Shown: piece by piece, positions 7,356 to 8,499 of the stretch
Position numbering within the stretch: position 1 is the first letter of the stretch
Layout of the letters: each line of letters begins with the position of its first letter
Source: a virus
Lineage: Duplodnaviria > Heunggongvirae > Uroviricota > Caudoviricetes
IMG/VR virus record: IMGVR_UViG_2728369554_000005
Strand: one strand, 5' to 3'
DNA: 12,733 nt
Position numbers and translations under genes: made by a program
Notes under the pieces: model-generated
Seen by the model: the letters and a program-made list of their open reading frames with translations, nothing else
Database searches by the model: none
What the model was told of the DNA's origin: nothing

Positions 7356-8005
7356 GCCGCCATCTCCCTGACCAGTTTTTCCGCCTGCTGGCGAACCTGC
7401 GCCAGAAACGCCTCACCACATGCCTCAAGTTCATCGCGCCCGATGTAGCTGATTGCCGGTCCCTTCCAGGTCTTGTCAAAAACAGCAATAGCACCAGCGA
7501 AAAAAGCTCCTGTCGGCACCTGCTTCTCGTCCTTCGGGATAAACCAGGCAGGCAGTTCAAAACCAATACGCCCGCGAATAAAAGCAATATGATCTGCATC
7601 TTCCGGCCACCACACTTCGCTGGTGGCAGCTTTGATCAGGAAAACATATCGCCCGCCTTTATCACGCATGGCACTGGCATGTTTCATGATGTAACGCATG
7701 CCGGTGATGTATTGCCCCTCATGCTGACTGGCGCGGCTGTATGGAGGATTTCCAAAGGCAGCACCTTTAAGCTCCGCAAGACGTTCTGACCAGTCATGCG
7801 CCAGCGCGTTGTCTTCCGCCGTGTAATACGCAGCACATTTGGCGTTATCACCGTCAGTGAACAGATCCAGAACAAACGGGCCAAACAGGGTGTTAATTCC
7901 CCAGAAAATGTTGTCCGGCGTGCGCCACTGATCGCCCACTTCCTTCAGTTCATGGGTTGGTTTGTTCCGCAGTTCCACCAGCTCCTGGCAATATTTATTA
8001 CTCAT
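7352..8005 (-). CDS. Phage DNA N6-adenine methyltransferase (Dam-type)
   Basis: Contains the FGNPPY catalytic motif IV. Start set at ATG 8005, which overlaps the stop of the upstream gene (TAATG). The track ORF extends to 8038. Confidence 0.8.
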   Translation of the reverse strand: MSNKYCQELVELRNKPTHELKEVGDQWRTPDNIFWGINTLFGPFVLDLFTDGDNAKCAAYYTAEDNALAHDWSERLAELKGAAFGNPPYSRASQHEGQYITGMRYIMKHASAMRDKGGRYVFLIKAATSEVWWPEDADHIAFIRGRIGFELPAWFIPKDEKQVPTGAFFAGAIAVFDKTWKGPAISYIGRDELEACGEAFLAQVRQQAEKLVREMAA

Positions 8006-8499
8006 TAAGCCCCCACGTAATTCCCTGACAGATACCACTCATCACCAGATACAGCGCGCTTGCTGCTTTTCCGTAAACACTGCTCACGACGCGCCAGAAA
8101 ATTGTTTCGTTCTGGCTGGGAGTGGCTTTCACGGAATGCCGCCATCCACACCGTTGCAGCACGACGGTATAAGCCCCTGGACTCCAGTTCTTCCGCCTGG
8201 CGGGTCAGGCACAAAATCACCCGGGGATCGTTAGTGCCGACATAGAAATTGCGCACAGGTCTGGTTTCACGAACTGGTTGTGGTTCCGGCTCCTGCGCTC
8301 TCTCAGTCAGGCGTGGGAAATGTCTGCGTGTATCTCCTTCACAACGGTGAGCCACACGCCCACTCTGACGTAACTTGCTTGCTGACTGCAGAACGCGCTG
8401 CCGTGAGTAACCTGCAAAAGCATCCGCAATGTCTCCGGAAGTACAGCCCGGATGGGCTTCAATGAATTTCTGAACGTCATTCAAAAGACTCATAATCAC
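8005..8499 (-). CDS. Putative PerC/Pch-family transcriptional regulator-like protein
   Basis: 164 aa. The segment AEELESRGLYRRAATVWMAAF...RREQCL resembles the PerC-family core (KGLWRRAA...W). The N-terminal half looks like a winged-helix domain. Assignment is from motif memory only. Confidence 0.45.
   Translation of the reverse strand: MIMSLLNDVQKFIEAHPGCTSGDIADAFAGYSRQRVLQSASKLRQSGRVAHRCEGDTRRHFPRLTERAQEPEPQPVRETRPVRNFYVGTNDPRVILCLTRQAEELESRGLYRRAATVWMAAFRESHSQPERNNFLARREQCLRKSSKRAVSGDEWYLSGNYVGA

Follow-up and report, generated by a model that had tools for sequence, protein, structure and literature searches.

We analyzed a stretch of 12,733 nucleotides (IMG/VR virus record IMGVR_UViG_2728369554_000005; henceforth the window), in which an open reading frame (ORF) spans 8005..8499 on the minus strand. 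This ORF is, with near certainty, yfdN, encoding the PerC-family protein YfdN, and the gene belongs to the early rightward operon of a lambdoid Escherichia coli prophage of the SfV/SfII/mEp460/CPS-53 type. A first-pass annotation had singled out the ORF by the motif RGLYRRAATVW and tentatively regarded its product as a PerC/Pch-like regulator that is translationally coupled to the Dam methyltransferase and may act on virulence loci. The ORF is real, the motif being located at 8146..8178 (minus strand; residues 106-116) in the turn that joins helices 1 and 2 of the PerC core, and the assignment to the PerC family is correct but was previously on record, with the gene named and annotated before.

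The Pfam model of PerC (PF06069) matched residues 98-151 of YfdN (8041..8202 of the window) with 38.9 bits and an E-value of 1e-9, well above the gathering cut-off of 22.6 bits, and the match spans just positions 5-58 of the 90 positions in the profile. No Pfam family besides PerC was found in the scan at E ≤ 1. PHROG 1324 ("transcriptional activator") matched residues 2-163 at 2e-78. Over its whole length, the window shares 99.9% identity with the prophages of E. coli BCE049 and 20Ec-P-124, in which RefSeq labels the gene as "yfdN, PerC family transcriptional regulator". YfdN is also 96% identical over 164 amino acids (aa) to YfdN of E. coli K-12 (b2357), the same gene in the cryptic prophage CPS-53/KpLE1. 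The K-12 gene also has matching flanks: an initiator remnant, yfdO, which overlaps it by 4 nt on the upstream side, and a Dam remnant, yfdM, which overlaps it by 1 nt on the downstream side. These K-12 neighbors are truncated remnants, while the prophage module is intact in the window. Of the 5426 complete E. coli genomes, 2674 carry the 495-bp gene, K-12 being among them, and the gene was also found in the phages SfII, SfV, and mEp460 and in many Shiga toxin (Stx)-converting phages. Uhlich et al. termed yfdN "the K12 unique PerC homologue" (PMC5931665). The K-12 record lists YfdN as an "uncharacterized protein", and the papers mentioning yfdN that our literature search retrieved (a glycogen over-expression screen, a region in a filamentation screen, and a predicted interactome cluster) give no functional data.

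YfdN comprises 164 aa if translation starts from the GTG at 8499, which is adopted in the RefSeq models, or 162 aa if it starts from the ATG at 8493. We consider the ATG to be the likelier start, because AGGGGG, a G-rich Shine-Dalgarno-like run, sits 5 nt upstream of it, the distant homologues all start with M-S-L or M-S-[LIM], and the curated phage records annotate a protein of 162 aa. With the ATG, the coding sequence (162 aa plus the stop codon) occupies 8005..8493 on the minus strand. The upstream junction, AGGGGG-TGA-TT-ATG (8491..8504, minus strand), comprises the Shine-Dalgarno-like run (8504..8499), the TGA of the preceding replication initiator gene (8498..8496), and the yfdN ATG (8493..8491); the TGA, which overlaps the alternative GTG, is followed by the ATG after two bases. 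At the downstream junction, the last A of the yfdN TAA (8007..8005) is the first base of the ATG of the Dam gene (8005..8003). The TAATG overlap between yfdN and Dam, which had been noted in the first-pass annotation, is confirmed at 8003..8007 on the minus strand, preceded by a GGGGG Shine-Dalgarno-like run at 8010..8014.

The AlphaFold2 model of YfdN, built from an alignment of 14 sequences, comprises two folded domains separated by a disordered linker. The N-terminal domain (residues 1-60; 8314..8493, minus strand) is made of three helices (residues 3-13, 19-25, and 31-44) and two strands (47-52 and 55-60), the latter forming a hairpin at 47-60, with a predicted local distance difference test (pLDDT) score of about 84-92. 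In Foldseek searches, this domain resembled the winged helices of ArsR/SmtB, BlaI/MecI, and MarR with template modeling scores of 0.4-0.7 on the target. A profile match to BlaI/MecI among the PDB structures was found at 4.5e-4, and Penicillinase_R or MarR of Pfam matched several members of the YfdN family. When the full model was searched against PDB and BFVD, the matches were confined to winged helices of a generic kind, with E > 1e-3. Altogether, the modeled N-terminus has a winged-helix fold of the BlaI/MecI, MarR, or ArsR type, for which DNA binding is only predicted. Residues 61-88 (8230..8313, minus strand) constitute a low-complexity, poorly conserved linker, which varies in length and sequence among homologues, with the pLDDT falling below 50 at residues 63-84.

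The linker is followed by the PerC-type core (residues 89-149; 8047..8229, minus strand), recognized by both the AlphaFold2 model and Pfam PerC, which folds into three helices (90-105, 109-122, and 126-149) with a pLDDT of 88-94. Tetratricopeptide repeat (TPR)-like folds were matched by the core, and the sequence-profile search found no solved structure for it. R111, A112, and A113 are invariant or nearly so in 26 family members including PchE. The C-terminal tail (residues 150-162; 8008..8046, minus strand) bears the pattern W-x-L-[SA]-G-x-[YF]-x-G and ends with W-x-L-S-G-N-Y-V-G-A in YfdN itself. This tail, modeled with low pLDDT, is kept even in relatives of ~25% identity, is specific to the two-domain YfdN subfamily, and is found neither in PerC nor in Pch.

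The family is narrow and essentially enterobacterial, as just 159 relatives were retrieved when 1.84 billion representative proteins were searched with the profile. Approximately 35 of them are two-domain proteins of 140-165 aa that diverge down to ~25% identity with both domains and the tail retained, and the rest are short proteins bearing the PerC core alone. All of the 26 diverse two-domain relatives matched the PerC profile. YfdN shares with these relatives the winged helix, the linker, the PerC core, and the tail, as well as the position directly after a phage replication initiator. Thus, YfdN represents a distinct two-domain subfamily inside the PerC family and is not "Pch-like" in the narrow sense; of the PerC/Pch-like label in the first-pass annotation, the PerC domain was borne out by the profile comparison but the Pch-like architecture was not, as YfdN has an additional winged helix and no PerC/Pch-type C-terminal region. 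The short proteins of the narrow PerC/Pch type (~89-104 aa) are single-domain and possess a C-terminal region of the pattern DN..D[IL][KR].AV..Y..MG..FR.Y, and YfdN does not belong to them.

The cores themselves are alike. In the alignment of YfdN with PerC (pMAR2), group-1 Pch, and PchE, 16 columns including E, G, Y, R, R, A, A, W, R, and C were invariant, and the pattern A-x2-L-E-x-[KR]-G-[LF]-[YF]-R-R-A-A-x2-W ... R-R-x2-C was shared by all of them. PerC (BfpW), encoded in the perABC operon on the plasmid pMAR2 of enteropathogenic E. coli, has a similar three-helix core (32% identity over 56 residues) and belongs to the same Pfam family. Nevertheless, PerC is a single-domain protein of 89 aa with the C-terminal region DN..DIKQ.V..Y..MG..FRNY that YfdN lacks, whereas YfdN has the winged helix, the linker, and its own tail. 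PerC activated LEE1 of the enterocyte effacement locus (LEE) in a control experiment (PMC11773190). The group-1 Pch proteins of enterohaemorrhagic E. coli (PchA/B/C) are 40% identical to YfdN over the 50-residue core, but they are single-domain proteins of 104 aa encoded by free-standing cargo genes beside effector and insertion sequence (IS) genes, in contrast to yfdN in an early operon, and LEE activation has been demonstrated for PchA/B/C and not for YfdN. The third group consists of PchE, 36% identical to YfdN in the core, and the proteins encoded in phage-inducible chromosomal islands (PICIs) and P4-like satellites (e.g., EcCIMP1_025). These are of 78-103 aa without any winged helix, and their genes follow those for a single-stranded DNA-binding protein (SSB) or ProQ instead of an O-like initiator, although they close a replication block as yfdN does. 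They influence LEE variably or not at all (PMC5931665; PMC11773190).

The ANR regulators (e.g., Aar) are also small three-helix proteins resembling the PerC core, but they are smaller than 10 kDa and act as anti-activators binding AraC-type proteins and H-NS (PMC5570504). The ANR model NF033650 matched residues 98-144 of YfdN with 22.4 bits (E = 7.7e-5), under its cut-off of 32 bits, and the cores of PerC, PchE, and YfdN-type proteins gave sub-threshold matches of 13.6-25 bits. One protein with the Pfam PerC domain bears the NCBI name ANR, and similarity between PerC and ANR has been noted before (PMC11773190). These profile scores suggest a distant relation at most, and YfdN is not placed in the ANR family.

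We compared the neighborhoods of yfdN in 85 close loci and two remote relatives, one of Citrobacter (46% identity) and the other of Leclercia (25% identity). A scan of genome contigs yielded 7 loci only. In the window, yfdN follows the gene of an O-like replication initiator/replisome organizer (8496..9503, minus strand; PHROG 391 "replication initiation O-like", 8e-84), and an O-like initiator was found upstream in almost all of the 85 loci as well as in both remote relatives. The gene downstream was more variable: Dam in 57 loci and a gene for a LexA DNA-binding-domain (DBD) protein in 26 loci, with the GGGGGCTTAATG junction being common to both. The sequence GGGGGC(T/G)TAATG is the same before Dam and before the LexA-domain gene. 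The Citrobacter relative retains the order of the initiator, YfdN, and the LexA-domain gene with the ATGACTAA overlap, and the Leclercia relative that of the initiator, the YfdN-like gene, TAATG, and a longer Dam fusion. The upstream junction was kept in approximately 80 of the 85 loci and the downstream TAATG junction in 83, independent of the next gene. Because the same junction precedes Dam and the LexA-domain gene alike, the stop/start overlap is a property of the operon, i.e., ordinary phage gene packing, and not a special link between YfdN and Dam. The coupling claimed in the first-pass annotation therefore stands insofar as the two genes are co-transcribed with overlapping stop and start codons, but it is routine and not specific to Dam. 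The constant partner of yfdN is the replication initiator upstream.

The Dam gene offers another possible function for the winged helix: if the N-terminus were of the PapI/FaeA type, YfdN and the co-translated Dam would constitute a methylation-sensitive switch at GATC sites. There were N-terminal matches to a PapI-family structure (2htj, E = 0.0099) and, in one member, to Pfam FaeA (0.0083), and Dam follows yfdN in the 57 loci mentioned above and, with the same TAATG, in the Leclercia relative. However, these weak matches are at the level of winged helices in general, with BlaI, MarR, and ArsR scoring equally or better, and no Dam follows yfdN in 26 of the 85 loci or in the Citrobacter relative. 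We rejected the PapI/FaeA resemblance as generic winged-helix noise and regard the switch as scarcely credible.

The association with the initiator extends to its C-terminus. The initiators preceding yfdN differ from each other, comprising those of 330-335 aa as in the window, the 272-aa SfV/mEp460 type, the 287-313-aa Phg_2220_C type, and others, and they have just the last residues, ..DY(S)QIP[ADE]GFRG, in common. In the window, this tail reads DYSQIPAGFRG (8499..8531, minus strand). Scanning IMG/VR for the tail, we detected 110 ORF ends representing at least six full-length initiator types, and a YfdN-like ORF follows immediately in 102 of them. Seven of the eight remaining cases carry one identical 395-bp deletion inside yfdN, and the eighth ran off the contig. 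The deletion, corresponding to 8021..8415 of the window, removes codons 27 to about 158 and keeps the ribosome-binding site of Dam, and the allele was found on three initiator backgrounds. The seven contigs carry natural null alleles of yfdN. As a side observation, the initiator tail bears a loose resemblance to the acidic SSB tail (..IPF).

Short PerC-family genes occupy a comparable position in satellites. Among the six clusters sampled, five, plus PchE, were found in PICI/P4-like satellite blocks (Sakai Sp7 among the examples), in which DUF4222, primase/helicase, and SSB genes, the last followed by ProQ/FinO in some cases, precede the PerC gene at the end. The SSB paralogues in these blocks terminate with acidic P-F or P-Y tails. 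The window parallels the satellites with the order of DUF4222, the initiator, and YfdN, and the frequent occurrence of PerC-family genes in Gram-negative PICIs has been reported (PMC11773190). Only group-1 Pch was free-standing in the sampled clusters, beside effector and IS genes. Several of the satellite PerC-family genes were located just upstream of capsid genes.

These observations bear on the possibility that YfdN is a second protein of the replication module, which takes the position of lambda P and helps in building the replisome, or in its regulation, at the phage origin. In such a case, the TPR-like core would bind the initiator tail (..DYSQIPxGFRG) or, in the satellites, the acidic ..IPF-type tail of SSB, with the winged helix touching DNA or a replication protein of the host. 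C-terminal peptides are common ligands of TPR units, and the TPR-like fold match of the core fits this possibility, as do the initiator directly upstream in nearly all of the close loci and the two remote relatives, the tail kept by at least six types of the initiator N-terminus and followed by a YfdN-like ORF in 102 of 110 cases, and the same kind of junction after primase-SSB(-ProQ) in the satellites with SSBs ending in acidic P-F/P-Y. Likewise, a DUF4222 gene opens both the phage and satellite blocks, and no helicase or helicase-loader family was detectable between cII and Q. On the other hand, YfdN resembles neither lambda P, DnaC, or DnaT nor any other loader in sequence or fold, and its scans against Pfam (E ≤ 1), NCBIfam, and PHROG found no helicase-loader family (lambda P or the DnaC/IstB type). 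Synteny in mosaic phages can stem from shared recombination junctions instead of protein contacts, and the downstream junction is equally conserved. Furthermore, the deletion allele of yfdN has spread over three initiator backgrounds, and the free-standing PerC and PchABC are regulators of transcription that have no genes for replication in their vicinity (PMC4764244). We regard a replication accessory role as unlikely, although it is the main alternative and the synteny is in its favor.

Lambda P and Ren remain positional analogues of YfdN, as yfdN comes directly after the initiator where lambda has P and then ren. Homology between YfdN and Ren is not established: the N-terminal domain matched PHROG 142 at E = 0.0099, and the pairwise hhalign comparison gave E = 0.0043 over 49 columns with a probability of only 8%.

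A broader version would hold that PerC-family proteins work primarily not in virulence regulation but as a conserved component at the end of replication modules in enterobacterial phages and satellites. The core would dock on the tail of the preceding protein (..IPxGFRG in initiators or ..D-x-P-F in SSBs), YfdN would be the version with a winged helix of its own, and PerC and PchABC would be detached copies recruited later to LEE control. We consider this scenario distinctly improbable. If true, an interaction between the initiator tail and a PerC-family protein would offer a first biochemical entry point to a family whose mode of action has stayed obscure through decades of studies on PerC and Pch, and the association of the initiator (or SSB) tail with a PerC-family gene is the one thread worth a small follow-up.

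In the virulence reading that stems from the first-pass annotation, the protein, as a regulator of the PerC/Pch kind, would activate ler/LEE, other chromosomal virulence loci, or the neighboring toxin genes. YfdN does have a true PerC core with the invariant pattern E-x-[KR]-G-[LF]-[YF]-R-R-A-A..W..R-R..C, and the prophage bears a pertussis-like AB5 toxin. In addition, Uhlich et al. judged it prudent to delete yfdN in their K-12 ler-lacZ reporter strain (PMC5931665), and PchE, a divergent homologue, has regulatory effects on curli, flagella, and adhesion upon over-expression (PMC6265319; PMC7369912). Nevertheless, yfdN resides in about half of the complete E. coli genomes, including that of the LEE-negative K-12, and the architecture of YfdN differs from that of PerC/Pch, of which the C-terminal third is absent. 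PchD and PchE activate ler barely or not at all (PMC5931665), and the PerC-like proteins of the PICIs in EDL933 and CFT073 had no effect, while EcCIMP1_025 represses LEE1 (PMC11773190). The genomic setting differs as well: yfdN is an early lytic gene behind the prophage repressor, induced and not expressed as cargo in the lysogen, whereas group-1 pch genes lie beside effector and IS genes, and genes of the PerC family regularly belong to the replication blocks that phages and satellites carry. The toxin genes are in a late position that is expected to depend on Q, and thus no link to YfdN is needed for their expression. Given that LEE may be activated, left unaffected, or repressed by divergent PerC homologues, no role in virulence can be deduced for YfdN, and we hold such a role to be highly unlikely. 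The PerC-family label in a prophage does not predict activation of LEE or virulence, especially for the two-domain YfdN type.

We tentatively favor the possibility that YfdN is an induced early protein that would serve the phage itself as a DNA-associated modulator of the anti-silencing type. YfdN would be made upon prophage induction and then serve the phage as a regulatory adaptor associated with DNA. Binding to DNA (or to a partner) would be the task of the winged helix, and the PerC core, as reported for the cores of PerC/Pch, would either weaken silencing complexes of the H-NS type or touch a partner protein at horizontally acquired, AT-rich DNA. If host virulence genes were affected, this would be a side effect varying with the strain and not a dedicated role. 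The proposal is drawn by analogy to Pch, which relieves silencing by H-NS/StpA/Hha and occupies many chromosomal sites in chromatin immunoprecipitation (Fukui et al., PMC4764244). The sub-threshold similarity of the PerC, PchE, and YfdN cores to ANR is counted as support by analogy, given that ANRs bind H-NS and AraC-type proteins, and the added winged helix is a plausible DNA-binding part of YfdN's own. The AT-rich cargo block of the prophage (2500..4500), which holds the toxin pair and has a GC content of 38-43%, is a plausible natural target of silencing. AT-rich cargo of this kind is silenced by H-NS.

Several points weigh against the anti-silencing role. Fukui et al. were unable to co-precipitate PchA with H-NS or to demonstrate direct contact between Pch and H-NS (PMC4764244); the biochemistry of the PerC core is therefore unsettled. 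The TPR-like fold of the modeled core would argue for protein binding rather than DNA binding, and the strict adjacency to the initiator with the conserved tail suits a role in replication no less well. Function may not transfer from PerC/Pch, since their C-terminal third is missing from YfdN. The seven IMG/VR contigs with the deletion indicate that yfdN is dispensable at least for prophage carriage, and the literature searched contained no experiment on YfdN.

The rest of the window is consistent with the placement of yfdN in the early operon. The window covers the early-right and lysis parts of the prophage, with all genes on the minus strand save the repressor (10814..11500, plus strand), and the operon is transcribed from the cro-like gene at 10676 to Q at 4367. 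The order on the minus strand is cro-like YdaS, cII-like YmfL, DUF4222, the O-like initiator, YfdN, Dam, and the LexA-DBD protein, followed by RusA, KilA-N, DUF968, Q, the pertussis-like AB5 toxin pair, holin, lysozyme, and Rz. Nearly all of the gene junctions in the operon are overlapping or nearly so, and neither a promoter-like site nor a minus-strand terminator-like site was found in 6900..9700. The DUF4222 gene opening the replication block (9460..9672, minus strand) was identified by Pfam at 1.5e-18.

The Dam gene (7352..8005, minus strand) encodes a phage N-6-adenine methyltransferase of 217 aa (Pfam Dam, 7e-46; TIGR01712, 1e-76; PADLOC MTase_II, 1.6e-157), which matched both type II and orphan methyltransferase models in PADLOC. 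The Dam of the Leclercia prophage is a protein of 409 aa, in which the methylase is followed by a C-terminal extension of ~190 aa of unassigned function. The LexA-DBD protein (7029..7355, minus strand; 108 aa; LexA DBD, 2.9e-19) has no S24 peptidase domain, and from its sequence it would be a LexA-like binder that is non-cleavable. For YfdN, PADLOC gave no defence-system match; its sole match was a GajB fragment with E = 0.0094, no stretch of which passed.

The pertussis-like AB5 toxin pair (2879..3610 and 3646..4065, both on the minus strand) lies between Q and holin, in agreement with the toxin-carrying late region described in the first-pass annotation. The A subunit matched Pertussis_S1 (6e-14) and Scabin-like (2e-9), and the B subunit is annotated in RefSeq as "subtilase family AB5 toxin binding subunit". 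The Stx genes occupy the same position in Stx phages, in which toxin expression is established to follow Q antitermination. By analogy, Q-dependent expression is expected for the toxin pair from its position between Q and holin.

Two runs of N occur in the window, one of 136 bases in the KilA-N gene (5765..5900) and the other of 68 bases in the initiator gene (8668..8735), and the unmasked sequence is available in NZ_CP042250.1, in which the initiator is of 330 aa. No tRNA gene was found in the window. The DUF968 protein encoded just ahead of Q (4756..5751, minus strand) has an HNH-like C-terminal region (HNHc_6, 2.8e-6) and is conserved across the phage group.

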